64,000 nucleotides of DNA, from contig QHSX01000064.1 in assembly GCA_003221695.1 (NCBI GenBank), forward strand, positions 9,048-73,047, written 5' to 3'. Numbering within the stretch: position 1 is the first letter of the stretch; the number at the start of each line of letters is the position of its first letter. Made by a program: the position numbers and the translations under genes. The notes beneath the pieces were generated by a model. The model ran no database searches and was not told the DNA's origin. It worked only from the letters and a program-made list of their open reading frames with translations. The stretch comes from Candidatus Rokuibacteriota bacterium. Its GTDB lineage: Bacteria > Methylomirabilota > Methylomirabilia > Rokubacteriales > CSP1-6. Shown here piece after piece: positions 42,323 through 61,902 of the stretch.

Positions 42323-42337
42323 GTCCCGTCGAAGGGC

Positions 42338-45500: not shown

Positions 45501-45588
45501 CGGCGCGGAGCCGGGTCGTTGGCGGCGTGGACTCGAGGCCGCGAATCTTGACACTCCGGCGTCGCGCAGCGCATCATGACAGTAACCC

Positions 45589-47169
45589 ATGCGCGAGCTG
45601 ATCAGGATCTATGACACGACCCTCCGGGACGGGACGCAGGGCGAGGGAGTGTCCTTCTCGATGGAGGACAAGGTCCGCCTGACGTCGCGGCTCGACGCGC
45701 TCGGCATCCACTACATCGAGGGAGGCTGGCCGGGCTCCAATCCCAAGGACTTGCGCTTCTTCCGCCGGATGCAGGACGTGGCGCTCAAGCACGCGAAGCT
45801 CGCCGCGTTCAGCATGACCCGCCGTGCGGGTGGCACCGCCGAGTCGGACGCCAACATGCAGGCGCTCCTGGACGCGGGCGCGCCCGTCGCGACGATCGTC
45901 GGCAAGGCGTGGGACTTCCACGTGACCCACGCGCTCTCCACGACCCTCGACGAAAACCTGGCGATGATCGCCGACACGATCGCCTTCCTCCGGCCGCGGG
46001 TGGAGGAGGTCATGTTCGACGCCGAGCACTTCTTCGACGGCATCCGTCGGAACCGCGACTACGCGCTCGCGACGCTCCGCGCCGCCGAAGCCGCCGGCGC
46101 CCACTGGCTCGTGCTCTGCGACACGAACGGCGGCACGCTCCCGCGCGACCTGATCGCGGCCCTCCAGGCCGTGAAGCAGCACGTGAAGACGCCGCTCGGC
46201 ATCCACGTCCACAACGATGCCGAGTGCGCCGTCGCCAACTCGCTGGCCGCCGTCGGCGAAGGCGTGCGCCAGGTGCAGGGGACGATGAACGGCTACGGCG
46301 AGCGGTGCGGCAACGCGAACCTCGTCTCGATCATCCCCAACCTGGTGCTCAAGATGGGGCTCGACTGCATACCGCAGCCGAACCTGCGCGAGCTGCGGGA
46401 CGTCTCGCGGTTCGTCTCCGAGCTGGCCAACCGCAAGCCGTGGGCCGCGCAGCCCTACGTCGGCGACTCCGCCTTCGCCCACAAGGGTGGCATGCACGTC
46501 GCCGCCGTGCTGAAGCATCCCGAGACGTACGAGCACCTGGACCCCGAGGCGGTGGGCAACCACCGGCGCGTGCTCGTCTCCGAGCTCGCGGGCAAGTCGA
46601 ACATCCTCTGGAAGGCGCGCGAGTATGGCATCGACATCGACCGCGACACGCCGGACTCGCGACGGATTCTCACCGAGCTCAAGGCGCTCGAGGACCAGGG
46701 GTTCCAGTTCGAGGGCGCGGAGGCGTCGTTCGAGCTCCTGATGGAGCGCGCGCTCGGCCGGCACAAGCCCTACTTCGAGCTCGACGCGTACCGCGTGATC
46801 GTCGAGGAGCAGAGCCACGACGCGGAGCCGGTCGCGGAGGCCACGGTCCGCGTCCGCGTCAAGGGCATCCTCGAGCACACGGCGGCGTCCGGCAACGGGC
46901 CGGTCAACGCGCTCGACCACGCGCTCCGCAAGGCGCTGGAGGAGTTCTACCCGAACCTCCGGGCGATGCGGCTCCTCGACTACAAGGTGCGTATCCTCGA
47001 CGAGTCCAAGGGCACCGCGGCGAAGACGCGTGTGCTCATCACCTCGGGCGACGGCGAGGAGACGTGGGGCACCGTCGGGGTCGCCGACAACATCATCGAG
47101 GCGTCCTGGCAGGCGCTCGTGGACTCGATCGAGTACAAGCTGCGCCGGGACGAGCGGGCGCGTCCATGA
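45589..47169 (+). CDS. cimA: Citramalate synthase
   Basis: [33 protein letters not shown]. Confidence 0.88.
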
Positions 47170-47537
47170 CCGTCGTGGTCGTCGACGACGACCTCACGAT
47201 CGTCAAGATGTGCGAGAAGGTCCTTCGTGCGCAGGGCCACACGGTCCACGGCTTCACGACCACGCGCGAGGCGCTCGCCCACCTCGGGCAGGGCGTCCCC
47301 GCCGACCTGCTCGTCGTGGACTACATGATGCCCGAGCAGAACGGGTTCGAGTTCGTCGAGCAGGCGTGGTCGCTCAGGCCCGCGCTGCGAGTCGTCATGA
47401 TCACCGCCCACGGCAATCGTGAGCTCGTGGGTGAGGCCGCCCAGGCCGGGATCCACGGGGTCGTCCTCAAGCCATTCACCGCGGCTGACCTCACGCGGGG
47501 GGTGGCGACGGCGATGGAGCGGTCGACGTCCGCCTAG
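47166..47537 (+). CDS. Single-domain response regulator
   Basis: VDDD, VVDYMMP, ITAHG, LKPF. Confidence 0.85.
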
Positions 47538-47656
47538 CTCCGTGGTCTCGGCTCTGTGAGGGGGGGGTGGTCCGGAAATTATCTGGGTGTCCAGAAACTT
47601 ACCAGCAATATCGTGGCCACCCACTCGTAAGATCTTGAAATTTCAGCATAGGGAGT

Positions 47657-47672
47657 TCGGTATCGAAATTGC
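47657..47672 (+). promoter_or_regulatory. Sigma54-type promoter candidate
   Basis: TCGGTATCGAAATTGC (GG-N10-GC) in an AT-rich intergenic stretch. Confidence 0.45.
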
Positions 47673-47701
47673 CTTTGCTCCATCCCCAGGAGGATTCAGC
47701 C

Positions 47702-47953
47702 ATGGGGATGGGAGAAGTAACAGCGTTCAGCGGGATGGTGCCGGGCAACGGCCAGGCGCACACCCGGGTGCGTGGCGTGGGCCGGCCGTCCACGGTGGCC
47801 CAGTTCTCGCCGCAGATCACGCAGTGGCTTCAGGACCACCCGGCCATGTCGGGTGCGGAGGTGCTTCGGCGCGTCCGTCTGGTAGGCTATCGCGGCGGTA
47901 AGAGCGCGCTGTACGAGCTGGTGCGGCGCCTCCGGCTCGCAATCGCCAACTAG
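47702..47953 (+). CDS. Small protein resembling the IS21 IstA HTH domain
   Basis: GRPS..EVLRRVRLVGYRGGKSALYELVRRLR; GGAGG RBS; no DDE domain follows. Confidence 0.55.
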   Translation: MGMGEVTAFSGMVPGNGQAHTRVRGVGRPSTVAQFSPQITQWLQDHPAMSGAEVLRRVRLVGYRGGKSALYELVRRLRLAIAN

Positions 47954-48074
47954 CCCGCCTTAGCGTGCTCCCGCGTCGGCGCGCCGGCCTTCGGTGTGCG
48001 CTCGACGCGTAGGGACCCGGTCTCGCCTCTCGCGCCACGCTCGGATTCCCGCGCCACGCTCGATCTGGTCGACG

Positions 48075-49751
48075 TCAGCGATCCCGATCGTCCCCGTCGC
48101 CGTCGTGTTCGGCAGCGCCACGGCACGCGAAGTTCGCGGCCTCATTGGTCCCGCCGTGCCCCCTGTAGACCGCCTTTTGAGGGTACGGGCAGAGCGGACG
48201 TTGCATGGCGACGCCCTTCCCGGGATCGTCGTCCACGTATTTCGTGGCGATGATCTTGTCCGGCGCCACGTGGCGGTCGACCCACTGGTCGAGCGCGCTC
48301 AGCACGTCGTGCGCCGCGTCGATTTGTGGCGGGCTCGCCCCGAACACGCCACCGATGGCGTGAGGGCCAGGGCCGCCACCGCAATGGAGCATCCCCGGCG
48401 CCATGAAGAGGCGGAAGAACTGCTGCGTCTCGCGCAGGGCGTCTCCGCGATCGCGAGTGTCGGGCTTGCGCCCATCCTCCTCGGCGACGGCTCGCACCAC
48501 GCTCTCGTAGTAGTTGATGGCGTTGAGCGGCGCGATCGCCCCGTCCTCCCAACCGTGATACATGATGATCTTTCCGCCGCGAGCCTTCAGGCGTCTGAGG
48601 TCCGGGTTGGTCGAGTTGAGGATGCCGGCCAGCTTGTTATCGGTGACGTCGACGTCGCTGTCGAAGTCGAAGGTCCTGAAGTCCCAGCTCGGATCCTCGA
48701 AGACCATGTTGGTGAAAAACTGGTTCCCGAAAAAGAACTGCAGCGCCCCGCCTGGCGGTGCGCCGGTGATCCAGACCGACCAGTTGCCCGGCGCGGCGAC
48801 GGCGCCCGGCGTATAGCCGGGGAAGATCTGCTTTCCTGTGCCCGGGTTCCGTGGCCCGTCCATGATCTTCATGAGCGCGGTCACCTGTGGCGCCGTGAGG
48901 CACGTGTTGGCGTCGGCCCCCTGACACAGGAGTTGCGATGGATCGAAGTGGCATCGCCTCGGGTCGTCGATGATGCCGTCCACGATGCCGTCGAGCGCGT
49001 CACAGGCGGCGAGCGCCGCGGCCTGGATGGCGGGGAGCTTGCTCGTCGGGATGTAGCTGCCTGGTCCACCCATCGTCGCTTGCTCGTTCCAAACGAACCC
49101 CACGAAGTGGTGCGTCCAGAAGTTGGCCGGTGCCCCGACGATGATGCCATCGTAGTCGTCGGGGAAGCGCTGCGCTTCCATGAGCGCCTCCCGGCCGCCG
49201 TCCGAGCATCCGCTGAAGTAGGAACGCCGGGGACCGTTGCCGTAGAAGGCGCGGATGATCGCCTTGGCCCTCTCGGCCGTTTCGTGGACCGCGCGATACC
49301 CGAAATCGACGACCCTTTCAGGGTGTCCCAGGGCCCAGCGGGCGTCGCCGCCCGTGTGGCCATCATCCGTCCCGGCGGTAGCGTAGCCGCGGCGGAGCCC
49401 GGGGGCCAGGGCGCTGTACAAGATCGAGCCCGCGAAGCCGCCATTGCCAATGCCCTCGAACTTTCCGTTCCAGCCCGAGCTTGGCATCCAGACTTCGAAA
49501 CCGATCCGCGAGGCGCTCGTCGGCGTTGCGAAGCCCGCCACCCGGCAGAAGGCCGGCAGATCGTTGACGACCTCCCCACTCGGTGCGCTGAAGGTGCCGG
49601 AGGGGACGGACTGGGCCACCGTGATCGTCGTGTTCGGCACCGCAAGAGCGCTGAGGCTCTCGCAGGCCGCCGCGGCCGCCGGCGTCGGGCCCGGGATGAC
49701 CGCCGCGAGCAGACCCACGACGAGAACGAGAACGCCGAAGTGACGACTCAT
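48075..49751 (-). CDS. Tannase/feruloyl esterase family hydrolase, secreted
   Basis: WNGKF..GNGG, GCSDGGRE, PGMLHCGGG, RPLCPYP. Confidence 0.9.
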   Translation of the reverse strand: MSRHFGVLVLVVGLLAAVIPGPTPAAAAACESLSALAVPNTTITVAQSVPSGTFSAPSGEVVNDLPAFCRVAGFATPTSASRIGFEVWMPSSGWNGKFEGIGNGGFAGSILYSALAPGLRRGYATAGTDDGHTGGDARWALGHPERVVDFGYRAVHETAERAKAIIRAFYGNGPRRSYFSGCSDGGREALMEAQRFPDDYDGIIVGAPANFWTHHFVGFVWNEQATMGGPGSYIPTSKLPAIQAAALAACDALDGIVDGIIDDPRRCHFDPSQLLCQGADANTCLTAPQVTALMKIMDGPRNPGTGKQIFPGYTPGAVAAPGNWSVWITGAPPGGALQFFFGNQFFTNMVFEDPSWDFRTFDFDSDVDVTDNKLAGILNSTNPDLRRLKARGGKIIMYHGWEDGAIAPLNAINYYESVVRAVAEEDGRKPDTRDRGDALRETQQFFRLFMAPGMLHCGGGPGPHAIGGVFGASPPQIDAAHDVLSALDQWVDRHVAPDKIIATKYVDDDPGKGVAMQRPLCPYPQKAVYRGHGGTNEAANFACRGAAEHDGDGDDRDR

Positions 49752-50027
49752 AGGATCCCCTCCCTGTGCAACAGATAGGGGGCCAGGGCTCTCTCCGCTA
49801 TCAGGGGTTTCCTTGGCTCGGCTCAGGGAAGATCCCCCGTCTCGGGAAGCGCGGGAACCTGCGGGAAGTTGCGGCCGGCGCTGATTTCCCTGAGGTCGCG
49901 TGTAACCCCGCTTCGCGATTCACGAGTCGCTCGCCGTCATTCGAGAACAAGCTTCTCAAGTTCGGTCAGGTCACGGATGCCCGATCCGCATCTGCACTAA
50001 CCGCACGCGGATACAGCTGGGCGCGGC

Positions 50028-50057
50028 TTGTTCGCTTCGCCAGCCGCGCGCTATAGT
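50028..50057 (+). promoter_or_regulatory. Sigma70-like promoter facing the cassette array
   Basis: TTGTTC 50028-50033, 18 nt, TATAGT 50052-50057. Confidence 0.45.
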
Positions 50058-50105
50058 CGGGCCGGCGCCGTGCGGAGCCCGGTGGACCGGATGTTCACGT
50101 CGTGA
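50058..50105 (+). pseudogene. intI: Putative remnant of an integron integrase C-terminus
   Basis: Encodes (R)AGAVRSPVDRMFTS-stop, like the IntI terminal VRSPLD motif; positioned just ahead of the array; very short. Confidence 0.55.
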
Positions 50106-50271
50106 CCTGGCTCGCGGCCTCTGGACGTATACGCGACAGGATATGCTGCAGGGGTCCCGCAGCCTATCTCGGGAAAGGGCCTGTCGGGGTGACGAGCAAT
50201 TCGTTCGTATCACGAATAGGCTGCGAAATCCCCCAGCGTTTCCGGTATTACGCTGATCAGCCGATCCGGTG

Positions 50272-50289
50272 GCCGAATTCTAGTTCGGC
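50272..50289 (+). other. attI-like site
   Basis: GCCGAA-TTCTA-GTTCGGC inverted pair; GTTCGGCGT matches 8/9 the complement of the first cassette's R'' region (ACGCCTAAC). Confidence 0.5.
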
Positions 50290-50329
50290 GTACTTCGATA
50301 TGACGCTGCGTGACGACGATTCAAGGATC

Positions 50330-50938
50330 ATGGATCCCAAAACGCAAGTCCGAGAGTCGTACAACCGCATTGCGGGCGCGTATCTTTCGTCACGTCGTTG
50401 CGATTCGCCGGATGTTGCGTTGCTGAATGATCTTGTCGTCCGGCTCCCACCGCGTGCACGGGTCCTTGACGCGGGTTGCGGCGCCGGTGTCCCCATCGCC
50501 CGGCAGCTTGCGACTCGTGCCAATGTCGTCGGGGTCGACTTTGCCGACGTACAGCTCGGCCTCGCCAGACGCCACGTGCCCACGGGGCTTTGGGTCTGTG
50601 CAGACCTCGTCGCACTGCCGTTCGCTGACGCGTCGTTCGATGCGATATGCTCGTATTACGCCGTCATCCACATCCCGCGAGAAGAGCATGCGCGCGTTCT
50701 TGATGGCTTTGCACGAGTGCTACGGTCCGGAGGGCCGGCGCTTCTGTGCCTTGGCGCGGCCGACCTGCCTGCGTGGACGGAGGAGTACCACGACGCGCCA
50801 ATGTATTGGAGCCACTACGATGCCGCGACGAGTCTTTCGCTGGTGAAGGCCGCCGGCTTCGACTTGGTGTGGCATCGTTGGGTCGCCGATGGATCTGGTG
50901 GTCACTTGTTCGTTCTGGCTCAGCGCCATGACGCCTAA
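50330..50938 (+). CDS. Cassette: class I SAM-dependent methyltransferase
   Basis: VLDAGCGAG; TAA stop lies within R''. Confidence 0.85.
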   Translation: MDPKTQVRESYNRIAGAYLSSRRCDSPDVALLNDLVVRLPPRARVLDAGCGAGVPIARQLATRANVVGVDFADVQLGLARRHVPTGLWVCADLVALPFADASFDAICSYYAVIHIPREEHARVLDGFARVLRSGGPALLCLGAADLPAWTEEYHDAPMYWSHYDAATSLSLVKAAGFDLVWHRWVADGSGGHLFVLAQRHDA

Positions 50939-50993
50939 CTGCAGCTTGGAGCCGGCGGCGCTGGCGCGCCGCGGCTCAAGCTGAGCGTTCGGC
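50933..50993 (+). other. attC site 1
   Basis: GCCTAAC..CTTG[G]AGC..GCTCAAG..GTTCGGC. Confidence 0.9.
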
Positions 50994-51021
50994 GTACTAG
51001 CGGCAAGACGGAGGAGGCCAT

Positions 51022-51912
51022 ATGGCAGGTCGACGACCGGTGGTTATCCTGGCGCTGACGTTACTGGTTTTGCCGGAACTCGTGCTTCACGCCTCGGGCA
51101 AGCCCATCACGACGATGGCCCATGGCCCCAAGGGCGACGTCGAGTTCGAGACGCTCACGCTGAACGCGAGCGACTTCTGGGACGGCGTCAAGACCGGGCA
51201 GCGCGTCACCATCTCCGGCGAGCTGCTCCTGCCGAAGGGCGAGGGCCGGGTGCCCGTCGTCGTCCTGTCGCATGGCGGCGGCGGCGTGGGGCGCGCGGAG
51301 GACACCTGGGCTCGTGAGCTGCGATCACAGGGCATAGCCGTGTTTGTCGTCGACAGCTTCACCGGCCGCGGGATCAAGAAGTTCCCGCCCGAGACAGAGC
51401 TGAGTCGCGCCGGGCAGGTGTACGACGTGTACCAGGCCCTCGCGCTCCTCGCGACTCATCCCAGGGTCGACCCCGGCCGTATCGCGCTGATGGGCGGGTC
51501 GCGCGGCGGCGGGCTGTCCCTCCTGGCCGCGATGACGAGATCGCTAAAGGCGCAGGCGCCCGCCAACCTCGAGTTCTGCGCGTATCTCGCGCTTTACCCC
51601 TCGATCAACGCCACGCTCGACTACGGGAAGGTAGCGAGCCGCCCGATCCGCCTCTTCACGGGCACGCTCGACGAGGCCACCTCGATCACCACGGTGCGGG
51701 GCTTCGCCGAGAAGCAGCGGGCGGGCGGCGCCGACGTCAAGCTGTTCGAATACGAAGGCGCCCACCACGCGTTCGACAACCCCGACTTCCGGGCGCCGTT
51801 GGTCGCGACGATAGGGAATACCTCGTTCACCGTGCTCTACCACGCGCAGGCTCACGCGAGGGTCACGAAGGACGTGAAGGCGACGCTGGCCGAGGTCTTC
51901 GCGAAGCCGTGA
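51022..51912 (+). CDS. Cassette: dienelactone hydrolase family protein
   Basis: GGSRGG, YEGAHHAFD; GGAGG RBS. Confidence 0.82.
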   Translation: MAGRRPVVILALTLLVLPELVLHASGKPITTMAHGPKGDVEFETLTLNASDFWDGVKTGQRVTISGELLLPKGEGRVPVVVLSHGGGGVGRAEDTWARELRSQGIAVFVVDSFTGRGIKKFPPETELSRAGQVYDVYQALALLATHPRVDPGRIALMGGSRGGGLSLLAAMTRSLKAQAPANLEFCAYLALYPSINATLDYGKVASRPIRLFTGTLDEATSITTVRGFAEKQRAGGADVKLFEYEGAHHAFDNPDFRAPLVATIGNTSFTVLYHAQAHARVTKDVKATLAEVFAKP

Positions 51913-52057
51913 TGCCGACGGCGGGACGGAGCCAGCAAGGGACGACTGCCGGCATGATTTCCCGGGCGCTCACGATCGAGAATCGCTTGCGGGGAGTTTG
52001 CGGGGGCCAGAAGCTCTCGCTGGAGGAGATGAAACGTGCCGTGCTGCCGAGACGGAC

Positions 52058-52121
52058 GCCGAACAAACGCATGCAGCCGACGGCGCGCAGGGCGCGCCGC
52101 GGCTGATACGTCGCGTTAGGC
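52058..52121 (+). other. attC site 2
   Basis: GCCGAAC..AT[G]CAGCCG[A]CGGCGCGC/GCGCGCCGCGGCTGAT..GTTAGGC. Confidence 0.9.
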
Positions 52122-52138
52122 AGGAAGGTCACAGCACG

Positions 52139-52603
52139 ATGGCGACTGAATGTCCACAATGTGGCCTGATCAATCCGCCCGCTGCCCAGCGTTGCGATTG
52201 CGGCTACAATCTCGCCCAACGCCCCACTCTCAATGCGTCGCGAATCGGCCTTCAGGCTTTGTTGTTCTCTTTTACCGGTCGAATAGGCCGGTCTACATAT
52301 TGGCTCAAGTTTCTCGTGCCGTATTTTGCACTCTACTTGGTATTGCTGGTCGTCGACTGGACTCTGGGAACACTTGATCGCAAGGAAGCTATTGGTCTCC
52401 TTTCTGGGATCTTCCTACTCCTGGCGTTGTTCCCGTCTGTTGCTGTCGGCGTGAAGAGGTGCCACGACAGGGACCGGTCCGGATGGTTCCTCCTGGTGGG
52501 AGTCATCCCCTTTTTGAATCTGTGGCTTCTGATCGAGCTCGGGTTCATGGCCGGGACAGCCGGGCCTAATAGGTACGGGCTCCCTGAGCCACGCGTGGTC
52601 TGA
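52139..52603 (+). CDS. Cassette: DUF805 membrane protein with N-terminal Cys ribbon
   Basis: CPQC..CDCG; FTGRIGR, KRCHDRDRSGW, GPNRYG. Confidence 0.82.
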   Translation: MATECPQCGLINPPAAQRCDCGYNLAQRPTLNASRIGLQALLFSFTGRIGRSTYWLKFLVPYFALYLVLLVVDWTLGTLDRKEAIGLLSGIFLLLALFPSVAVGVKRCHDRDRSGWFLLVGVIPFLNLWLLIELGFMAGTAGPNRYGLPEPRVV

Positions 52604-52647
52604 GCGTCAGCAGGGAGCTATGGTACCCAACCGTCTGCGCTGTCCCT

Positions 52648-52705
52648 GCTTAACCTCGGCATTCAGCCGACGGCCTGTGGCCGCGGCTGATGCCGGGCGT
52701 TGAGC
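52648..52705 (+). other. attC site 3 (R' now GTT plus the IS left end)
   Basis: GCTTAAC..CAGCCG..CGGCTG..GTT|GAGC. Confidence 0.88.
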
Positions 52706-54473
52706 CTGTAGAAAAACCTTGGAATCGCCGTCGTCTCGTCTCTCGTGTGAAGAGCGCGACGACCTCACACGATGAGGAGGAGCGATGGCGCGGTTTAAGC
52801 CCTACAGCTACGATCAGCTGAAGCTCGTGCCGGTGAGCTTCGAGCGCCAGATCCTGCCGGGCACGTTCGAGGCTACGCTGAGCCGCCTGATCGACGAGGA
52901 GATCGATCTGTCGGTGTTCGAAGCCCGGTACCGTAACGACGAGGTGGGGGCGCCGGCCTACGACCCGGCCATCCTTCTCAAAGTCATCCTTTATGCCTAC
53001 GCCCGCGGCGTGACCTCCAGCCGCGAGATTGCCCGGCTGTGTCGGGAGAATGTCCTGTTCATGGCGTTGTCGGCCGACAGCGCGCCCCACTTCACGACGA
53101 TCGCAGATTTCATTGCGACGCTCGACCGGGAGATCGTCGCCGTGTTCCGGGACGTGCTCTTGGTGTGTGACGAGCTGGGGCTGATCGGGCGAGAGATGTT
53201 CGCCGTCGATGGGGTGAAGCTGCCGAGCAATGCCTCCAAGGAGTGGAGCGGCACCCGGGGGGACTTCGAGAAGAAGATCGCGAAGATGGAACGTGCGGTT
53301 GAGCATCTGGTGCGCCGTCACCGCGACGCCGACGCGGCGGGGGACGAGGAACCGCTGCGGGTGGCGCGGGGCAAGCAGATCGAGACCCTCCAGGCGGCGC
53401 TGGAGAAGGTCCGGGGGTTTCTTCAACGCCACGCGGACAAGGTCGGGCCCAGCGGGCGGGTGAAGAAGAGCAACCTCACCGACAACGACAGTGCCAAGAT
53501 GAAGACCTCGAAGGGCGTGATCCAGGGCTACGACGGGGTGGCGGTCGTGGACGGCCAGCATCAAATCGTGGTCCACGCGCAGGCCTTCGGCGAAGCCCAG
53601 GAGCACGCGCTGCTGGTGCCCATGTTGGAGGGGACGCGAGCGACGTTTCGCGAGCTGGGCCTCGCCGAGGACGTGCTGGCGGGCGCGGTGGTCGCGGCGG
53701 ACGCGGGCTTCCACACGGACGCGAACGTGCAGTACCTCGACGAGACGCACGTCGACGGCTATCTGGCCGACACGTTGTTTCGCAAGCGCGACCCGCGCTT
53801 TGTCACCGCCGAGCGGCATAAGCCCGAGCCGGTGGACGATCCCGCGCGGCTCTTTCGGCCCGAGGACTTTCGCTTCGACCCGAAGAGCTTGACCTGCATC
53901 TGCCCGGCGGGCAAGCGGCTGTACCGGAGCGGCCAACACAACCGTCCTGACGGCTATCGCGCGGTGATCTTCAAAGGGGCCAAGCGGGACTGCGGGGCGT
54001 GCCCGCTGCGCGCCCGGTGCCTGACGCATCCCGAGCGCACTCTGATCCGACAGGTCACGCTCTTCCTGGGACGATCCCCGGGCAAGCCGGAGACCTGCAG
54101 CGCTCGCATGAAGCGCAAGATCGACACCGACCACGGGCGCTATCAGTACAGTCGCCGGCTTGCGGTGGCCGAGCCGGTGTTTGCGAACATCTGCAGCAGC
54201 CGCCGCTTGAGGCGGTTCAGCCTGCGCGGCCACCGAAAGATCAACACCCAGTGGCTGCTGTACTGCCTGGTGCACAACATCGGGAAGCTGCAACGCTACG
54301 GGACGAGCGAGGGCCGATCGGCATGAACGGATCGATCCGCCAGAGCGAGAACGGCCGCAGGCGATGCTGAGAGATCGGCTGTCGGCACCCCTCGCCTCCC
54401 TCGATAAAGACCGCCGACACTAGGGCGATTCTGGCGATGGCAGGCTTCGCAAACCTGGTTTTTCTACAGACTC
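52702..54473 (+). mobile_element. IS1182-family insertion sequence (1772 bp) in an attC core
   Basis: 17-bp IRs GAGCCTGTAGAAAAACC / GGTTTTTCTACAGACTC (16/17); GTT duplicated at 52699-52701 and 54474-54476. Confidence 0.92.
52785..54326 (+). CDS. IS1182-family DDE transposase
   Basis: GAPAYDP..LLKV..SSR (DUF772-like), AVDGVKL, ADAGF, CPAG..C..CP..C, AEPVFAN. Confidence 0.9.
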   Translation: MARFKPYSYDQLKLVPVSFERQILPGTFEATLSRLIDEEIDLSVFEARYRNDEVGAPAYDPAILLKVILYAYARGVTSSREIARLCRENVLFMALSADSAPHFTTIADFIATLDREIVAVFRDVLLVCDELGLIGREMFAVDGVKLPSNASKEWSGTRGDFEKKIAKMERAVEHLVRRHRDADAAGDEEPLRVARGKQIETLQAALEKVRGFLQRHADKVGPSGRVKKSNLTDNDSAKMKTSKGVIQGYDGVAVVDGQHQIVVHAQAFGEAQEHALLVPMLEGTRATFRELGLAEDVLAGAVVAADAGFHTDANVQYLDETHVDGYLADTLFRKRDPRFVTAERHKPEPVDDPARLFRPEDFRFDPKSLTCICPAGKRLYRSGQHNRPDGYRAVIFKGAKRDCGACPLRARCLTHPERTLIRQVTLFLGRSPGKPETCSARMKRKIDTDHGRYQYSRRLAVAEPVFANICSSRRLRRFSLRGHRKINTQWLLYCLVHNIGKLQRYGTSEGRSA

Positions 54474-54503
54474 GTTAGAAGGACAAGAGTCGAGGAGGTA
54501 CCC

Positions 54504-54944
54504 ATGGGCCGACCGTACGCGACAGAAAACGATGCTGAGCGCACCAGACTGAAGGCCTTCGTAGCCGGGCTGAGGGATGCCACGATCGCTCGCTCCATCG
54601 GCCATGGGTGGACGGTCGGCGTTGGTCTGGCACACTTGGCCTTCTGGGACAGGCTCTGGCTCGCCAAGTTCGAGGAGTGGGAGCGCACGGGTGTGGTGAG
54701 GGTGCCGCCAGTCGAGAGCTTCGTCAACGGAATCAACGACGGCATGCTGCCCTGGTGGCAGGCTATTGCGCCAGCCCAGATCAGGTACGAGGTGATCGCG
54801 GCGGCCGAGGCGGCGGACAGCAAGGCTGAGAGCCTGCGCGAGGCATTGGCCCAGGCAATCCTCGCGGTGCGTCCGCGGACTCTTGTTCGTGCGACCCATC
54901 GCCGTCAGCATCTGGACGAAATCGAGCGCGCCCTTGCCGACTGA
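54504..54944 (+). CDS. Cassette: DinB/MDMPI-like protein
   Basis: GWTV..LAHLAFWD, HRRQHLDEI. Confidence 0.7.
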   Translation: MGRPYATENDAERTRLKAFVAGLRDATIARSIGHGWTVGVGLAHLAFWDRLWLAKFEEWERTGVVRVPPVESFVNGINDGMLPWWQAIAPAQIRYEVIAAAEAADSKAESLREALAQAILAVRPRTLVRATHRRQHLDEIERALAD

Positions 54945-54971
54945 CGACAGGTACGCACCCAACCCAGGGCC

Positions 54972-55040
54972 TTCTAACCGCACGCTTCAGCTGACCGGGG
55001 CTCGCGCTGCTCGCCCCCGCAGCTGAGCGGCACGTTAGCC
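54972..55040 (+). other. attC site 4
   Basis: TTCTAAC..TCAGCTG..CAGCTGA..GTTAGCC. Confidence 0.9.
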
Positions 55041-55059
55041 GTCCAGAGGGAGACGGGGA

Positions 55060-55425
55060 ATGGATCGACGGCCAATCAACTTTGCCGAGAAGTTCTCGAA
55101 GTTCTCTGACCACTGGGCGCCGAAGATCATCGCCCAAATGAACGACTATCACTTCAAACTCGTGAAGATTCAGGGCGAGTTTGTCTGGCACAGTCACGCT
55201 GACACCGACGAAGTCTTCATCGTCATCGGTGGGGAGATGAAGATCCACCTCCGGGATGGCGAGGTTAACCTCCGACCCGGAGAACTGTTCGTTATCCCGC
55301 GAGGAGTCGAGCACAAGCCCTGGGCGGCTGGAGAGTGCAAAATCATGCTTGTTGAGAGTGCTGGAACAATCAACACGGGTGATGCCGGTGGCCCAAAGAC
55401 AGCCGCTGACGGAGTCTGGGTCTAA
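55060..55425 (+). CDS. Cassette: cupin domain protein
   Basis: [19 protein letters not shown]. Confidence 0.85.
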
Positions 55426-55431
55426 ATGGCC

Positions 55432-55489
55432 CCCTAACACCGCTGGCTCGCCTTTGCTCGGCGGCGCCGCGCAACGTGCGCGGTGAGGG
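55432..55489 (+). other. attC site 5 (degenerate)
   Basis: CCCTAAC...GTGAGGG; poor internal pairing; GTT changed to GTG. Confidence 0.5.
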
Positions 55490-55508
55490 GGTATAGGACA
55501 TTCTCCAG

Positions 55509-56097
55509 ATGGATGATCTTGAAATCAGGCAGGTTCCGGCAGTGGTCGATACGATTCGCCGCGACACCCGGCAGTTGGGGTTCACAATGGCTTCTGAGCC
55601 GCAGACCGGCTCGCTGCTTCGCACCCTCGCCGCATCCAAGCCGAGCGGCAGATTTCTGGAACTCGGGACCGGTACTGGCGTCGGTACGGCTTGGCTCCTC
55701 GCCGGCATGGACGAGCGTTCCCGGCTCGACTCGGTCGAAAACGACGCCAAGGTGTTGGAGGTGGCTCGGCGCCATCTCGGGCACGACCCGCGCGTCACGT
55801 TCCATCTCGCAGACGGTGAGGCGTTCCTCGCCCAGTCAGCACCGTTGCACTTCGACTTCATCTACGCTGACACGTGGCCCGGCAAGTTCACGCACGTGGA
55901 CCTTGCGCTTTCGCTCCCGAAAGTCGGCGGTATCTATTTTATCGACGACCTTACTACCGCAGGCGTCATGGCCGGAGGGGCACGCACCAAAGGTTCCGGC
56001 GCTGATCACGGAGCTGGAAACCCGACCCGGATTTGTTGCCACGAAGTTGGCCTGGGCGTCCGGGCTTATGATGCTCGTACGAACGAATGCCGTCTAA
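55509..56097 (+). pseudogene. Cassette: O-methyltransferase with a +1 frameshift near 55950
   Basis: LELGTGTG frame to IDDL, then LPQASWPEGH.. continues in another frame whose TAA is inside R''. Confidence 0.75.
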
Positions 56098-56160
56098 CAC
56101 GGACTTGACCCCGACGCCGCGGGTGACCCGATCGCGCCGCGGGTCAGTCCGATGTTAGAC
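56092..56160 (+). other. attC site 6
   Basis: GTCTAAC..GGACT[T]GACCC..GGGTCAGTCC..GTTAGAC. Confidence 0.85.
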
Positions 56161-56190
56161 CGACAACAGCCGAAACCAACAGAGAGAGTC

Positions 56191-57048
56191 ATGCATGATA
56201 AGCAAGTGGCGGCGCCAGACAACACGGCGGTGCGGGTCGCCTTGTGGCGGGCGCTGCACGTAGAAGTCGATTCGCCGCCGCACGTGCTCGAAGACGAAGT
56301 CGGCTTGAAGCTGGCGGCTCCAGACGACGGATGGCGCAGCCGCCCGGACATGAGCCCGTTCACGCGGCCCTTCCGCGCCTCCATCGTGGCCCGCGCCCGC
56401 TTCATTGAAGATCTCGTCGCGGAACAAGTTGCCCATGGCGTCGGACAGTACGTCATCCTCGGAGCGGGGCTGGACACCTTCGCCCAGCGTCGGCCGGAGC
56501 TTGCCTCCCGTCTGCTCGTGTTCGAGATCGATCCGCCCGGCCCTCAGGCGTGGAAGCGCCAGCGCCTCGTCGACCTCGGCCTCGGTATCCCGTCGTTCCT
56601 GCGGCTCGTGCCAGTCGACTTCGAGGCAGGCGACGCGTGGCGGGAGCAGCTGGCAGCGACGGGCTTCGACTCCGGGCGGCCGGCGGTCGTGGCGTCCACC
56701 GGTGTCAGCATGTACCTGACCAAGAACGCGATTGCGGCGACGCTGCGCCAGGTCGCGACGCTCTCTCCGGGCTCCACGCTCGCCATGTCGTTCATGCTTC
56801 CGATCGAGCTTGCGGACCCCGAGGTGCGTCCCGGGATTGAGCGAGCGGTGGCGGGGGCGCGAGCAAACGGCACGCCCTTCATCAGCTTCTTCACGCCGAC
56901 AGAGATGCTGACACTGGCTCGCAATGCCGGCTTTAGAGAGGTCCAGCACGTATCGGCAGCTACGCTTGCCCAACGCTACTTCGCGGGCAGGACAGATGGC
57001 CTTCGTCCGCCAAATAATTCAGAGGAACTGCTAGTGGCGACTACCTAA
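56191..57048 (+). CDS. Cassette: LCM-family SAM-dependent methyltransferase
   Basis: RARFIED, QYVILGAGLDT, GVSMYL. Confidence 0.85.
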   Translation: MHDKQVAAPDNTAVRVALWRALHVEVDSPPHVLEDEVGLKLAAPDDGWRSRPDMSPFTRPFRASIVARARFIEDLVAEQVAHGVGQYVILGAGLDTFAQRRPELASRLLVFEIDPPGPQAWKRQRLVDLGLGIPSFLRLVPVDFEAGDAWREQLAATGFDSGRPAVVASTGVSMYLTKNAIAATLRQVATLSPGSTLAMSFMLPIELADPEVRPGIERAVAGARANGTPFISFFTPTEMLTLARNAGFREVQHVSAATLAQRYFAGRTDGLRPPNNSEELLVATT

Positions 57049-57057
57049 AATGAAGCG

Positions 57058-57117
57058 GTCTAACAACCGGTTGTGGCGGACGGCGCTGCGCACCGCCGCT
57101 GAGCCGGAGTGTGAGAT
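57058..57117 (+). other. attC site 7 (R' GTG variant)
   Basis: GTCTAAC..GCGG[A]CGG..CCGCCGC..GTGAGAT. Confidence 0.78.
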
Positions 57118-57135
57118 GTACAAGCGACGAGAGCT

Positions 57136-57579
57136 ATGACGTCGGCAGGCACCACGAGGATCTGTGCTGGCGGCCTGCTGGTTCGGGGAGGCCAGATCCT
57201 TTTGGCTAGGCGCTCGGGAGACCGGAAGTTTTACCCCGGTGTGTGGGACATCATCGGTGGACACTGCGAAGGAGGCGAAGCACCTGCCGATGCCCTCGTT
57301 CGCGAACTTGAGGAAGAGATTGGCGTCAAGGCGCACGTGTTCGAGGAGATCGCCGTCTTGGAGGAGCCGCAGCCTGCCGAACACGGAGACGCCAGGTATC
57401 ACGTGTTCGTCGTGACATCCTGGGGCGGAGGTGAGCCCCGGTTGCTTGGGGCCGAGCATTCTGAGCTGCGCTGGGTGAACCTTGCTCACGCATTGGCTCT
57501 ACCACTTGCTCATCCTGGGTATGGCAACCTCTTCCGCGCCGTATTGGGACGTGGCGGTGCATTCGAACGAGACATCTAA
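57136..57579 (+). CDS. Cassette: NUDIX hydrolase
   Basis: GGHCEGGE..ALVRELEEEIG; stop in R''. Confidence 0.88.
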   Translation: MTSAGTTRICAGGLLVRGGQILLARRSGDRKFYPGVWDIIGGHCEGGEAPADALVRELEEEIGVKAHVFEEIAVLEEPQPAEHGDARYHVFVVTSWGGGEPRLLGAEHSELRWVNLAHALALPLAHPGYGNLFRAVLGRGGAFERDI

Positions 57580-57645
57580 CCCGGCACTCGAGCGGACCGC
57601 TGGCTCGCATTCGCTCGCCGCGGCCGCTCACTGCCAGCGTTCGAC
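57574..57645 (+). other. attC site 8
   Basis: ATCTAAC..GAGCGG[A]CCGC..GCGGCCGCTC..GTTCGAC. Confidence 0.9.
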
Positions 57646-57691
57646 GGCACCGAATAGGGGCCGAGGATTGTGCATTTGATAATGTAACCGG

Positions 57692-57889
57692 GTGAAGGTT
57701 CGTGAAGTGATTCGGATGCTGCAAGACGATGGCTGGACGCTGGTGGTTACAAGAGGTAGCCATCGTCAGTTCAAGCACCCGACCAAGCCGGGCCGTGTGA
57801 CTGTCAGCGGCCAGCTTGGAGACGACATGCCGAAGGGGACGCTGGCATCCGTCAGGCGCCAGGCGGGGCTTAAAGGAGACAGACCGTGA
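57692..57889 (+). CDS. hicA: Cassette: HicA toxin
   Basis: DGW..RGSHRQFKHP..GRVTV..GTL. Confidence 0.9.
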   Translation: MKVREVIRMLQDDGWTLVVTRGSHRQFKHPTKPGRVTVSGQLGDDMPKGTLASVRRQAGLKGDRP

Positions 57890-58149
57890 AAAGGCTGCGG
57901 TACCTCGTGCGCATCAACAAGGACCCTGACAGCGATTGGGGCGCTTCCGTTCCTGATTTGCCAGGATGCGTCGCTACGGGCAAGACGATCGACTCAACCC
58001 TCCAGCGCATTCAGGCGGCGATTCAACTTCATCTCCGTGGAATGCGGGCTGACGGTGTTCGTCCTCCGCGCCCACGCCGGCGAACTGTAGTGCCGGGCAG
58101 GACATCGCGACAGGTCGACTTTTACGCAACCGTAGAGGTTGCCGCCTGA
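57886..58149 (+). CDS. hicB: Cassette: HicB antitoxin (short form)
   Basis: VPDLPGCVATGKT; overlaps hicA stop. Confidence 0.88.
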   Translation: MKRLRYLVRINKDPDSDWGASVPDLPGCVATGKTIDSTLQRIQAAIQLHLRGMRADGVRPPRPRRRTVVPGRTSRQVDFYATVEVAA

Positions 58150-58177
58150 GAAGGGTGGACACGGTTGCCGGCAGTCC

Positions 58178-58241
58178 GCCGAACAAGCGCATGCAGCCGC
58201 CGGCGCGCAGGGCGCGCCGCGGCTGATAGGTAGCGTTCGGC
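58178..58241 (+). other. attC site 9
   Basis: 59/64 identical to attC site 2. Confidence 0.92.
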
Positions 58242-58259
58242 GAACGTCAGAGGTGCAGT

Positions 58260-58832
58260 ATGGAAATCGTCATGACACGAACCGCGGAGGGGCGGTCCAC
58301 GACGCTCGTGCGACGCGACGATGGCGTTACGCTTGAGCTTCCGAGTTACGCACCCCTTCACAGACTCCCTCACGACTTGGCGCACTTCGTCGTCGAGCGC
58401 ACTCTAGGGCTCCTGTGGGGGTTCTGGGGCTCCATCGCCGCTGGTGCCGTATTCGCAGGCGTGGAGGTTCTTCCGCGAAAGCGGGCCGCGCGCGTAGAGG
58501 AGCTTTCGCGACAGGTCATGAAGGGCGTCAGTTCGCGGGTCACCGAGGCCGAGGCAGTCGTAGGCAGCCTGGTAGAGATCTACCAGCGTCGGCTTGATCG
58601 CGACTGGGCAGCGGCTCGCGCTCTGCTCAGTGGGATATGGAGGCCGGCTCACCCATCGCGCGAGCTCCCCACACAGCCAGAGGTGCGTCGCGTATGTCAG
58701 GAGCTTTCGGATGCTGAGAACCGCTGGCTCGGCATGGCCATTGGTAGTAGCGTCACGCTTGTCTGGCCTCGGCAGGAGGCCACTTCTCCTCGTGCAGCGT
58801 CGCCGAACATCAGCCTTCAACCGATGCGCTAA
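58260..58832 (+). CDS. Cassette: hypothetical protein (PHDLAHFVVE motif)
   Basis: 190-aa ORF bounded by attC sites; reads into its own attC. Confidence 0.7.
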   Translation: MEIVMTRTAEGRSTTLVRRDDGVTLELPSYAPLHRLPHDLAHFVVERTLGLLWGFWGSIAAGAVFAGVEVLPRKRAARVEELSRQVMKGVSSRVTEAEAVVGSLVEIYQRRLDRDWAAARALLSGIWRPAHPSRELPTQPEVRRVCQELSDAENRWLGMAIGSSVTLVWPRQEATSPRAASPNISLQPMR

Positions 58833-58860
58833 CGCGCGCGGCTGATGCTGAGCGTTGAGC
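58802..58860 (+). other. attC site 10
   Basis: GCCGAAC..TCAACCG..CGGCTGA..GTTGAGC. Confidence 0.8.
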
Positions 58861-58864
58861 CGCC

Positions 58865-59647
58865 GTGAGAGAATCCAGAACGCCGGGCTGCCTCAGCGCC
58901 CGCCAGATCCTTTGGTTCGTCTCGCCGACGGTCGTATTGGTGTTCGCGGGCGCCTCCACGCCGTGGATAGCCCAGCGGGTTCCTCGATTTACCTTTCCGA
59001 CCGTGGCCGCCGCTGGTGCCGCGCTGATCGTGTTGTCGTTCGTGAACTCGCTCGTTCAGTTCGTGCGGCGTCGCCGCGTGGAAGGGCACCTGCGCTTCTT
59101 CTCTGTCGTCGTCAATGTCGTTGCGCTGGTGTTTCTCGTGCTTCTGCCCCTGACGCATCTTGTGTGTGCGGTGACCCCCTCAGGCGACGGCACCCCGCGA
59201 ATCCACACGGGCTTTGGCGACTGGCTGGGCTCAGAGGGCTATCCGCGGATGAGTCCCCATCGCGGCGTCGACGTCGCAGGCAGGATGGGCGCGGATGTGC
59301 TGGCGGCGGCCGACGGCCGCGTCACCGTCGCGCGTGACAACCGAGACTTGTGCGGGCTGATCGTCGTTATCGACCATGATCCATACGGCCTCCGAACGGT
59401 CTATTGCCACTTCTCCGAGATCGCCGTACGGGTCGGGGAGAATGTCAAGCGTGGCCAACGGATCGGCGCGGTCGGCACGTCGGGGCAGCGCGCGTGGCCT
59501 GGCTTTGAGCATGTGCACCTGGAGCTGCAGAGAGGGCGTAACATCAACGCCATCGAAGACCCGCTCCCACGGATTGTAGGATGCTTCGATGACACGAAGG
59601 TGTACTCGGCAGATCGCTTGGTGCTCACATATCCGGTGAAGTGCTGA
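58865..59647 (+). CDS. Cassette: membrane-anchored M23 peptidase
   Basis: Three TM segments, HRGVD, YCH, HVHLE. Confidence 0.82.
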   Translation: MRESRTPGCLSARQILWFVSPTVVLVFAGASTPWIAQRVPRFTFPTVAAAGAALIVLSFVNSLVQFVRRRRVEGHLRFFSVVVNVVALVFLVLLPLTHLVCAVTPSGDGTPRIHTGFGDWLGSEGYPRMSPHRGVDVAGRMGADVLAAADGRVTVARDNRDLCGLIVVIDHDPYGLRTVYCHFSEIAVRVGENVKRGQRIGAVGTSGQRAWPGFEHVHLELQRGRNINAIEDPLPRIVGCFDDTKVYSADRLVLTYPVKC

Positions 59648-59693
59648 GGATCTGCCAGGAAACATGGAGACAAAGTCATGCTGACAGCGGGTC

Positions 59694-59749
59694 GGCTAAC
59701 TTGCACATACACCCGATGCTTCGCGCGCCGCTCAGCGTGATCGTTAGGT
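59694..59749 (+). other. attC site 11 (degenerate arms)
   Basis: GGCTAAC...CCGCTCA..GTTAGGT. Confidence 0.6.
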
Positions 59750-59798
59750 CCAAAGCTCAGCCCGACTGGCTCCACGATTGTCATAAAGGAGGGAGGTC

Positions 59799-60710
59799 AC
59801 GCTGAAGCGGGTCGAGGCGGGTGTCCTCAGCGTCGCCTATGAAGAGAGTGGTGCCGCGAGCGGCACACCAGTTTTGCTTCTGCACGGTTTCCCCTATGAC
59901 GTTCACGCCTACGATGAGGTCACGCCTCTTCTTGTTTCGGCGGGGTGTCACGTTATTGCACCCTTCCTGCGCGGGTACGGGCCCACGCGCTTCTTGTCTC
60001 TCGATACGCCGCGCTCGGGACAGCAGGCGGTGCTGGCCCACGATCTCGTGGCCTTCATGGATGCGCTCCAAATTCAGAGGGGTGTGCTGGCGGGCTACGA
60101 CTGGGGAGGTCGTGCTGCTTGTATCGTCGCTGCGCTGTGGCCTGAGCGGGTAAGGGGGCTGGTATCAGGGGGCGGTTACAACATTCAGTACATTCCCGGC
60201 TATATCGAGCCACAAGCGCCGGAGAGAGAGTTTCAACTGTGGTACCAGTACTACTTCCATGGCGAGCGTGGGCGGGCCGGTCTGGAACAGAATCGCTACG
60301 AGTTTTGCAAACTTCTGTGGCGGCTTTGGTCCCCGAACTGGCATTTCGATGAGGCGACCTATGAACGCACTGCTGGTTCTTTCAACAACCCGGACTTCGT
60401 CGCTGTGGTGATTCATTCCTATCGGCATCGCTTTTCGCTGGTGCCCGGAGACCCGGCGACCGAGGTTACCGAACGCCGGTTGACCCAGCGACCGCCGATT
60501 GCCGTGCCGACGATCGTGCTGCACGGAGGTGATAACGGAGTCACGCCGGTAGCTAGCTCCGAGCGCCACCATCGGTTCTTCACAGCCGCATATGAGCGCC
60601 GAGTGATTCCGCTGGCGGGCCACAACTTGCCCCAGGAAGCGCCCCAGGACTTTTCGGCGGCGGTGCTCTCCCTCGTTAACCGTGCCAAAGAAGAACTCCG
60701 ATCGGCCTAA
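59799..60710 (+). CDS. Cassette: alpha/beta hydrolase (epoxide hydrolase-like), non-canonical start
   Basis: LLHGFP, GYDWGG, GHNLPQE; strong RBS precedes ACG/CTG. Confidence 0.82.
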   Translation, partial: TLKRVEAGVLSVAYEESGAASGTPVLLLHGFPYDVHAYDEVTPLLVSAGCHVIAPFLRGYGPTRFLSLDTPRSGQQAVLAHDLVAFMDALQIQRGVLAGYDWGGRAACIVAALWPERVRGLVSGGGYNIQYIPGYIEPQAPEREFQLWYQYYFHGERGRAGLEQNRYEFCKLLWRLWSPNWHFDEATYERTAGSFNNPDFVAVVIHSYRHRFSLVPGDPATEVTERRLTQRPPIAVPTIVLHGGDNGVTPVASSERHHRFFTAAYERRVIPLAGHNLPQEAPQDFSAAVLSLVNRAKEELRSA

Positions 60711-60786
60711 CATCACGTTGGACCCGACGGCCCACCTCCCTCGCCGGGGCTCGCTCGGTGGCCGCAGGTCAACGTGAGCGTTAGGC
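60705..60786 (+). other. attC site 12
   Basis: GCCTAAC..CACGTTG[G]ACC..GGTCAACGTG..GTTAGGC. Confidence 0.9.
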
Positions 60787-60791
60787 CGACC

Positions 60792-61307
60792 ATGACGATA
60801 CTGATGGGTTTTCTGCTGTTACTACAGCAAGCGTCGACTCTTCAAAGCACGTGCCCTGATCTGTCTGGCCGCTACGTCAAACAAAGTGAGGACGGGCGAG
60901 TCTACATCTCTATCAAGCAAACTCGCTGCGAGTCGATCGAGATCGATTGGGACGGGGAGACTCACGTCCTGCGACTCGATGGCAAGTCTCATGAAGACAC
61001 CAGCTGGTTTGGCGGCACCGGGAAGCAGCTTACCTCGGCAACATTTCGCTCTAAGATCCTCGAGCTCATCGCAAGACCTGAGAAGGCCGCAGACGCATCC
61101 GCCTTCCTTTGGAAGCTCGCCTTTGAGCTACTCTCTAATGGAGATCTTTGCGAACGGTTCCTCAGTTCCCATGGGTCTTCGTCGTCCGTGGCCGGACGCC
61201 AGAGGTCGAGCGACCCGTCAGCAGAAGACGAAGCCGCTCGACGTTCATCGGAAGCACGAGATCCGTCGGACCCTTATCAGGCCCTCGGTTGTCCACGGAG
61301 AAAGTAG
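60792..61307 (+). CDS. Cassette: hypothetical exported protein
   Basis: Signal-like N-terminus, CPDLSGRY. Confidence 0.6.
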   Translation: MTILMGFLLLLQQASTLQSTCPDLSGRYVKQSEDGRVYISIKQTRCESIEIDWDGETHVLRLDGKSHEDTSWFGGTGKQLTSATFRSKILELIARPEKAADASAFLWKLAFELLSNGDLCERFLSSHGSSSSVAGRQRSSDPSAEDEAARRSSEARDPSDPYQALGCPRRK

Positions 61308-61338
61308 TGCCGTCACGGATAGAGGCGTAGGTGATGAA

Positions 61339-61821
61339 ATGGTGACGTGGAAGGAGTTCGCCGCTGCCGAGCGCGACCTGGCCGAAACGGGCCGCTCGCT
61401 TCTCCTTCATAAGTCTGGCGTAGGGCTGGCCTTTCTGGCGACCGTGCGCAAGGACGGTGCCCCGCGCCTCCACCCGCTGTGCCCCGTCCTTTCCGACGAC
61501 CGTCTCTTTGTCCTCATTACACCCGCTTCACCGAAGCGCCACGACTTGCTGCGGGATGGCAGGTACGCTCTTCAGACGTTCTCGCAGCCGAAGCCTGGAA
61601 GCGACGAGTTCTACGTCGCAGGCAAAGCCATCTTGGTTGAAAATCCGGCGGTCCGTGGCGCAGTGTTTCGAGACGCGAAACACATGGCAAACGCGTCTGA
61701 AGTTCTGTTTGAACTGTGGATCGATCGGGTCATGCATACGCGATGGGAGAACGTACTAACGCCACAGATGCGCCCAGTGCACAGGAAGTGGCGCGCGCCG
61801 GGAGCCGCGAGTTCCGCCTAA
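61339..61821 (+). CDS. Cassette: pyridoxamine 5'-phosphate oxidase-like protein
   Basis: LATVRKDGAPRLHP, KRHDLLRDGRYAL; stop in R''. Confidence 0.82.
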   Translation: MVTWKEFAAAERDLAETGRSLLLHKSGVGLAFLATVRKDGAPRLHPLCPVLSDDRLFVLITPASPKRHDLLRDGRYALQTFSQPKPGSDEFYVAGKAILVENPAVRGAVFRDAKHMANASEVLFELWIDRVMHTRWENVLTPQMRPVHRKWRAPGAASSA

Positions 61822-61902
61822 CCGGCGCATGGAGCCGCCCGGCATGATCCCGGCTGCTTCTCTCAAGCCTCTCTGCGCCGGCGGCTCATGCGCACGTTCG
61901 AC
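61816..61902 (+). other. attC site 13
   Basis: GCCTAAC..GCGCATG[G]AGCCG..CGGCTCATGCGC..GTTCGAC. Confidence 0.9.

Follow-up and report, generated by a model that had tools for sequence, protein, structure and literature searches.

What has become of the integrase gene of an integron whose cassette array now stands behind a promoter-like sequence and a few codons? The question is raised by positions 50008-61902 of the window, by which we mean the whole stretch of 64,000 nt analysed here (G000:C21:9048-73047), taken from a 4.6-Mb Candidatus Rokuibacteriota assembly of 109 contigs. A sequence-only reading of this DNA had pointed to two promoter-like hexamers (TTGTTC and TATAGT), a run of codons resembling the end of an integron-integrase (IntI) and the inverted pair GCCGAA-N5-GTTCGGC, each of which proved to lie where it had been placed, and it had supposed that most of the integrase gene (intI) was deleted between the hexamers and the codons. 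Our comparison with the rest of the genome and with relatives from the same order leads us to the view that the region is very probably a decayed chromosomal integron, from which nearly all of intI was removed by an internal deletion of about 1.05 kb. For each of the pieces concerned, namely the upstream region, the stub, the dyad, attI and the array (Table 1), homology to the corresponding part of an integron is demonstrated by comparison of the sequences.

The course of events that we propose is as follows. In the ancestral layout, intI would have been transcribed toward attI and the cassettes. The deletion would have extended from just past the -10-like box of the intI upstream region to intI codon -15, leaving behind the upstream region, the last 14-15 codons, the dyad and attI, together with an array in which 11 attC sites and an insertion sequence are found. 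As IntI is not supplied in cis and the rest of the assembly yielded no intact intI, the insertion, excision and shuffling of cassettes would then have ended, and the array would thereby have turned into a static gene cluster, which gene-finding tools would label as a CALIN.

Table 1. Features of the decayed integron, its left neighbour and the two other intI genes of the genome (window positions unless a contig is named; a slash marks the crossover)
Feature	Position	Strand	Basis or remark
Tannase/feruloyl esterase gene	48075..49751	-	Pfam Tannase, E 2e-130; left neighbour, outside the integron
Retained intI upstream region (putative PintI), 51 nt	50008..50058	+	Similarity to relatives' intI upstream regions
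intI 3'-end remnant	50059..50105	+	Last 14-15 codons AGAVRSPVDRMFTS (50061-50102), stop TGA 50103-50105
Conserved dyad GATATGCTGC-N9-GCAGCCTATC	50140..50168		35 nt past the intI stop; putative hairpin or protein-binding site
Third motif copy AATAGGCTGC, direct	50215-50224		Inside the attI region
Fourth motif copy, degenerate, inverted (CAGCCTATCC in relatives)	~50257-50266		Inside the attI region (50215..50267)
attI	50216..50289	+	Core ...ATCCGGTGGCCGAATTCTAG/TTCGGC; pair GCCGAA 50272-50277, N5, GTTCGGC 50283-50289
Cassette array, 11 attC	50284..61902	+	Hairpin scan and covariance model R1
attC 1-6	50933-50993, 52058-52121, 52648-52705, 54972-55040, 56092-56160, 57058-57117	+	
attC 7-11	57574-57645, 58178-58241, 58802-58860, 60705-60786, 61816-61902	+	
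Cassette ORFs: methyltransferase, dienelactone hydrolase, DUF805, DinB-like, cupin, methyltransferase		+	Pfam
Cassette ORFs: LCM methyltransferase, NUDIX, HicB-like (adjacent small ORF), unknown protein		+	
Cassette ORFs: M23 peptidase, alpha/beta hydrolase, PNPOx-like		+	
Transposase gene of the insertion sequence in cassette 4	52785..54326	+	Pfam DDE_Tnp_1_6 (E 4e-22), DUF772, DDE_Tnp_1
Truncated intI	C28:1905-2459	-	TIGR02249 positions 131-315; positions 1-130 absent
Internally deleted intI	C11:80501-81154	+	TIGR02249 positions 1-111, 195-315; in-frame loss of 112-194

The intI remnant

Similarity to the 3' ends of intI genes starts at 50059, from where many relatives align rightward; the two sides of the deletion meet between 50058 and 50059-50061. 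When 49700-50400 was compared with the whole genome by blastn, both of the best non-self matches came from the two integron-type integrase genes of the genome, at their 3' ends: 50059-50106 matched C28:1940-1892 with 88% identity over 49 nt (E 5.4e-9), and the second-best match, to C11:81119-81157, was 85% identical over 39 nt (E 1e-3). At the protein level, 11 of 14 residues of the stub are identical to the C-terminus of the C28 IntI, and the stop codon stands at the same position. Immediately before their stops, the C28 and C11 products read ...PAAVRSPADRMFPS and ...PAAVRSPADRMFDP, and, over a longer stretch, ...NRGPAAVRSPADRMFPS and ...NRGPAAVRSPADRMFDP. The resemblance is specific to IntI C-termini, as the best DNA matches are the two genes above the cut-off of the integron-integrase profile TIGR02249, and the XerC/D-like genes of the genome have different ends (...HPRA). 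The proposal that these codons are the C-terminus of intI is thus borne out by the blastn match, by the identical residues and by the shared stop.

The reading frame of the stub extends 34 codons upstream before it closes, with no IntI-like residues ahead of the A of AGAV. A tblastn search with intact IntI misses the stub even at E<=50, since it is too short. Because the intI 3' end directly abuts a conserved intI upstream region, about 1.05 kb of the gene is missing, as measured against the intact intI of G006:C78, close to the roughly 1 kb assumed from the sequence at the outset. A site-specific excision signal or microhomology at the deletion endpoints was also considered, the left one reading GTTC... 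and the right one ...GAAC, and excision mediated by IntI was dropped because the two stand in inverted orientation.

The upstream region and its possible present role

The -35-like hexamer TTGTTC (50028-50033) and the -10-like hexamer TATAGT (50052-50057) are separated by an 18-nt spacer, and the left edge of similarity to the other integron platforms of the genus is at about 50008. Positions 50008-50059 are 96% identical over 52 nt to a locus of a genome of the same genus (G001:C203, L019 6001-6051), in which the leader and the N-terminus of IntI (~65 codons) come next. The upstream region is also 85% identical to G001:C183 and 82% identical to G002:C131 over 50015-50058; in these two loci it is fused to longer intI 3' remnants, which begin at about residues 326 and 308 of 357, respectively, and because the breakpoints differ, they represent separate deletions. 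In a genome from another genus of the same family (G006:C78), TTGTTC-N17-TATAGT with a divergent spacer is located 31 nt before the start codon of an open intI, and hexamers that are kept around a divergent spacer would be the pattern expected of a promoter. The region left of the stub had been taken for the upstream region of intI, and both the 96% match to G001:C203 and the hexamers shared with G006:C78 speak for this assignment.

A scan of 49600-50500 for sigma-70 consensus promoters and terminators called 0 sites, so the support for a promoter is comparative and not based on the consensus; TTGTTC agrees with TTGACA at three of six positions. According to blastn, the upstream region occurs once in this genome. 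The -35 box is surrounded by an inverted repeat (50021-50028 with 50042-50049), which we regard as unproven, a counterpart being present in G006 and absent from G001. On the reverse strand of the G006:C78 locus (L028), at ~780-900 and 5500-5585, there are two copies of an 84-nt module, 4.7 kb apart and 94% identical, each consisting of the promoter-like hexamers with a leader, a ribosome-binding site and a start codon; intI follows one of them, and a gene for a small membrane protein of 125 aa follows the other, which counts against the main reading of the upstream region.

It is possible, though on the whole doubtful, that the retained intI promoter, 220 nt from attI, now acts as a cassette promoter that replaces or reinforces Pc, cassette 1 having come about 1 kb closer. 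The promoter-like hexamers before intI are kept in two genera and point at the array, the expected transcription start is 266 nt ahead of cassette 1, and internal deletions of nearly all of intI, with the upstream region left in place, are seen repeatedly (G001:C183, G002:C131, G018:C222), all of which would suit such a role. Nevertheless, the upstream region was lost in about 10 of the relatives' remnants and kept in about 8, so there is no clear selection to keep it; in addition, the consensus scan calls no promoter here.

The RNA data can be read both ways. Two RNA-library contigs of 262 and 232 nt, from two metatranscriptome runs of one study, span the junction without differences (49911-50172 and 49949-50180) and cover the promoter, the stub and the dyad, which would suit that role. 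However, these contigs, which carry no strand information and no true ends, begin 115-150 nt before the expected start site and end 4-12 nt past the dyad. Because their starts lie upstream of the expected one, they did not arise solely from the retained promoter, and part of the transcription, at the least, comes in from outside or is antisense. The contigs could represent an RNA of their own or the tannase mRNA leader. No RNA-library contigs from runs X19 and X20 were found on attI or cassettes 1-3, which is no evidence of silence.

attI and the GATAKGCTGC repeats

The crossover point G/TT of attI is at 50283-50285. In an alignment of 17 loci, conservation ends at GTT and the bases beyond it differ from locus to locus, which would be expected of the boundary between attI and the first cassette; the conserved block before the crossover ends ...GTGGCCGAATTCnAG/TT in the relatives. 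Positions 50184-50285 are 90% identical to G046:C69, and similarity to relatives in general extends 180 nt beyond the stop codon of the stub, across the dyad and attI. The sequence-only reading had taken GCCGAA-N5-GTT for the attI site, and the conservation, which ends exactly at this GTT, upholds that choice.

Between the stub and this site there is a dyad, whose arms are the first two copies of a motif, GATAKGCTGC. Together with the third and fourth copies, the positions of which are kept in the 17-locus attI alignment, they make up two inverted pairs in the interval from the intI stop to the attI crossover (50140-50267), an arrangement that is kept across genera. When one mismatch at most is allowed, three of the four matches to the motif in the whole window fall within the 85 nt of 50140-50224. 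The dyad is kept in 18 aligned loci from several genera and families, and its hairpin, weak in the window (-14.8 kcal/mol), is strong in some of the relatives (-31.2 kcal/mol in G035:C261). In the alignment, 82% of the cells are paired, covariation is weak and the central pair is unpaired in 11 of the 18 sequences; an RNA element at the dyad is not claimed for these last two reasons. The predicted RNA structure of 50060-50185 was also not more stable than that of shuffled sequences (z 0.52).

The repeats most likely bind a protein, be it IntI at accessory sites or a regulator, or form a 3' hairpin of the intI transcript. We favour protein binding over RNA structure, because the sequence of the arms is kept, covariation between them being slight, and the motif recurs twice in attI. 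Any likeness of the motif to the DR1 site of class 1 integrons is tentative.

A broader idea, which we think unlikely, would unite these elements: in the toward-array integrons of this order, one promoter would serve both intI and the cassettes, the conserved module of four GATAKGCTGC copies, of which one pair would form a hairpin after the stop, would gate read-through into attI, and the repeated near-complete deletions of intI that spare the promoter, the 3' end and the module would be selected. If this were true, the selected deletions (those in this window, G001:C183, G002:C131 and G018:C222) would silence recombination and move the cassettes about 1 kb nearer to the promoter.

Orientation and decay of intI in the genome and its relatives

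A search of the genome with TIGR02249 returned two loci above the cut-off, C28 and C11. The positions lost from the C11 copy presumably include the catalytic Arg and Lys, and judging from their sequences, both copies look inactive. In a genome-wide search with the covariance model R1, attC sites were found on the strand of intI at both loci (- in C28, + in C11), past the 3' ends of the genes. The same order of elements was found in two relatives with intact intI, L024 and L028, which score 456 and 462 bits on TIGR02249 (cut-off 265) and in which the 3' end of intI is followed by the dyad, the attI block and cassettes on the same strand. An intI that reads toward attI and the array, as supposed for the ancestor of our locus, is therefore the arrangement in C28, in C11 and in the relatives with intact intI, and the stub and the attC sites in the window, all on the + strand, place the locus by orientation in the inverted integron-integrase group. 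Segments 57-76% identical to the relatives' IntI were found by tblastn in records of many phyla, and a crude attC scan of 46 of these 80 loci suggested that the array follows intI in the nearest relatives and precedes it in the proteobacterial ones.

Two further arrangements were seen at the other loci of the genome. At C28:1893-2601, the truncated intI on the - strand abuts a short piece of an intI 3' end that reads the other way (2455-2601, TIGR02249 positions 264-312, 16 bits), which suggests an inversion or a head-to-head remnant. At C11:81408-82367, a gene for a tyrosine recombinase that is not an IntI stands between the deleted intI and its cassette array.

Within the order, 56 of 183 genomes have a match to 50008-50300, and a further tally gave 23 of 41; both tallies include three unpublished genomes (G011, G044 and G167), of which our other claims are independent. 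We classified 26 published loci that have an intI 3' end, one locus cut by a contig end being excluded. Three of them are open over the full length, four have frameshifts or stops only (which could reflect assembly errors), seven have large internal or 5' deletions and 12 are short remnants. The right breakpoints in the relatives are scattered over codons 302-346, and a breakpoint hot spot among their stubs was rejected on this basis. A strict orthologue with an intact intI at the junction was not found, so that the comparison is one with paralogous platforms and other genera. The comparison with relatives that had been named as a test of the deletion is thus answered by way of paralogous and related loci; a strain in which intI is intact at precisely this point was not found.

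Two loci of relatives have structures of their own. In G018:C222 (L035), the TATAGT box, the leader and the start codon are joined to the last ten or so intI codons, and about 4.3 kb, probably an insertion, lie between the dyad and the attI block. In G001:C203 (L019, ~6050-6400), intI with its upstream region and about 65 codons passes into the 3' half of an attC (...GTTAGAT), the deletion having started within intI and reached into the array.

The junction might also have come from recombination or rearrangement between two integron platforms, one of which would have supplied the upstream region and the other the 3' end, attI and array, an origin that we consider quite improbable. There are at least three platforms in this genome and arrays at contig ends, the intI fragment in opposite orientation abuts the truncated gene in C28, and the fusion of intI into the middle of an attC in G001:C203 means that rearrangements among such elements do occur; the upstream piece, moreover, shares 96% identity with G001:C203, and the stub 88% with C28. 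However, a single deletion is the simpler explanation, the upstream piece is without a second copy in this genome, and two loci of the genus have the same upstream region with longer intI 3' remnants, as serial internal deletions would give. We thus retain the internal deletion as the preferred reading. That the array became frozen by it is plausible, because none of the three intI loci of the genome is intact, within the limits of a 109-contig assembly; an intact intI acting in trans may exist, because of this number of contigs and because several arrays are located at contig ends.

Reality of the junction

Contigs from 12 soil metagenome runs contain the full segment 49800-50400, and six more runs have it with a share of 0.98; these runs carry 16 study codes, some of which may belong to one campaign or source sample. 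The junction 50058/50059 is not an assembly error. A chance resemblance, with 14 codons that are not intI, or an assembly chimera at 50058/50059 is extremely improbable, because, even though the stub is short and missed by tblastn and the source is in 109 contigs, it stands out by blastn against the whole genome, the similarity of relatives continues for 180 nt past its stop through the dyad and attI, and the join is whole in 12 runs and is spanned by two RNA-library contigs. The DNA contigs of the soil runs also include a 1-nt indel at 50025 and a variant left of 50008, where the flank resembles that of G001; these differences mean that related platform alleles coexist in the samples.

Relation to known integrons and CALINs

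A complete integron is defined by an intI recognised by TIGR02249, an adjoining attI with a G/TT insertion point and a cassette promoter Pc, and a CALIN by at least two clustered attC sites with no integron-integrase gene nearby. In our locus 14-15 codons of intI are left, and the genome search with TIGR02249 gave no match at the stub. The attI sequence, kept in 17 loci up to GTT at 50283, would provide the insertion point. As regards Pc, the consensus scan of 49600-50500 gave no promoter, and the RNA-library contigs extend over 49911-50180 only. The 11 attC sites at 50933-61902, scoring 39.7-70.8 bits and all on the + strand, and the lack of a TIGR02249 match near the array agree with a CALIN.

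According to Cury et al. (2016, PMC4889954), CALINs are attC clusters without an integron-integrase, loss of intI is proposed as one origin of them, and IntI-specific pseudogenes occur within 10 kb of 15 of 279 CALINs; a same-orientation integrase group is described there as well, and the inverted group is reported to be paraphyletic. Our locus resembles these CALINs in having an attC array with no detectable intI. It differs from those described there in that its relic of 14-15 codons is below detection by profile or tblastn and was found through DNA similarity, the upstream region and attI.

In Treponema integrons, as described by Wu et al. (2013, PMC3607928), intI also reads toward attI, and in T. 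phagedenis intI was lost and attC sites were kept at the syntenic place, which they describe as a static structure. The loss of intI with retention of attC is common to both cases, whereas our locus belongs to a lineage of high-GC soil bacteria, its deletion endpoints are visible within a few bases, and neither its upstream region nor its attI has been lost. In the survey of Cambray et al. (2011, PMC3108266), in which frameshifts and deletions of <=100 bp only were scored, inactivity was predicted for 43-46% of IntI homologues and was common among bacteria from soil and freshwater. The deletion here is, by comparison, about 1 kb in size, and for the order sampled the intact fraction is lower, with three of 26 loci open over the full length.

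As for the recombination site, attI1 of class 1 integrons is described as a simple site with two accessory IntI1-binding sites, DR1 and DR2 (PMC4618277). The inverted core pair at the crossover and the repeated short motifs upstream of it are similar in our locus; unlike in that description, there are four GATAKGCTGC copies in two inverted pairs, 25-145 nt from the crossover, which do not resemble the GTTRRRY core and are putative IntI sites.

Because integrase loss, CALINs and same-orientation integrons have all been described already, our locus is a further case of a described type of decay, and it is neither a new system nor a reason to change the understanding of integrons. Its value is that it displays, base by base, an integron becoming a static attC cluster. 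A relic below the reach of the protein searches that were tried suggests one way in which CALINs could come to have no recognisable intI pseudogene, and comparison at the DNA level of the intI upstream region, 3' end and attI recovers the history of such loci. The comparison also defines a conserved attI and an adjoining repeat motif for a large uncultured soil group with toward-array integrons, most of whose integron platforms are decayed.

Flanks and cassette array

The tannase gene and the integron lie within a variable region. A contig from the same genus (G001:C34) aligns with 42205-48075 at about 90% identity, the alignment ending at the 3' end of the tannase gene (48075); the downstream flank of this contig has no match past the array in this genome, and for this reason the boundary of the island could not be set. 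At 47669-47953 there is a 94-aa ORF with no Pfam match, and its DNA at ~47770-47935 recurs at numerous sites of the genome and of relatives in the manner of a small repeated element. Beyond the end of the array, a phage-type tyrosine recombinase gene on the - strand (63261-64000) continues past the window edge; no other recombinase is present in the window, and this one was rejected as an integron integrase with 43 bits against the cut-off of 265 (TIGR02249). No Rfam family reached its gathering score in a scan of the whole window, and a tRNA scan of the window found none, by which a tRNA-like hairpin at ~63100-63206 was rejected as a tRNA.

The covariance model R1 was trained on 10 attC sites of the window, which score 51-71 bits, and it added one new site at 39.7 bits; outside the array, no site on either strand of the window came under E 0.01 (best 16.5 bits, E 0.066). 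The 10-mer GTTCGGCGTA occurs exactly twice in the window, at 50283, where cassette 1 starts, and at 50987, at the end of its attC. Every cassette ORF to which a Pfam family could be assigned reads along the + strand. One cassette (57692-58149) has an apparent HicA/HicB-like toxin-antitoxin pair, with a HicB_lk_antitox match at 57886-58149 and a 65-aa ORF upstream of it. Between the cupin and methyltransferase ORFs of one cassette interval, there is a weak attC-like sequence at 55426-55508, which is not called by the model and may be a decayed attC.
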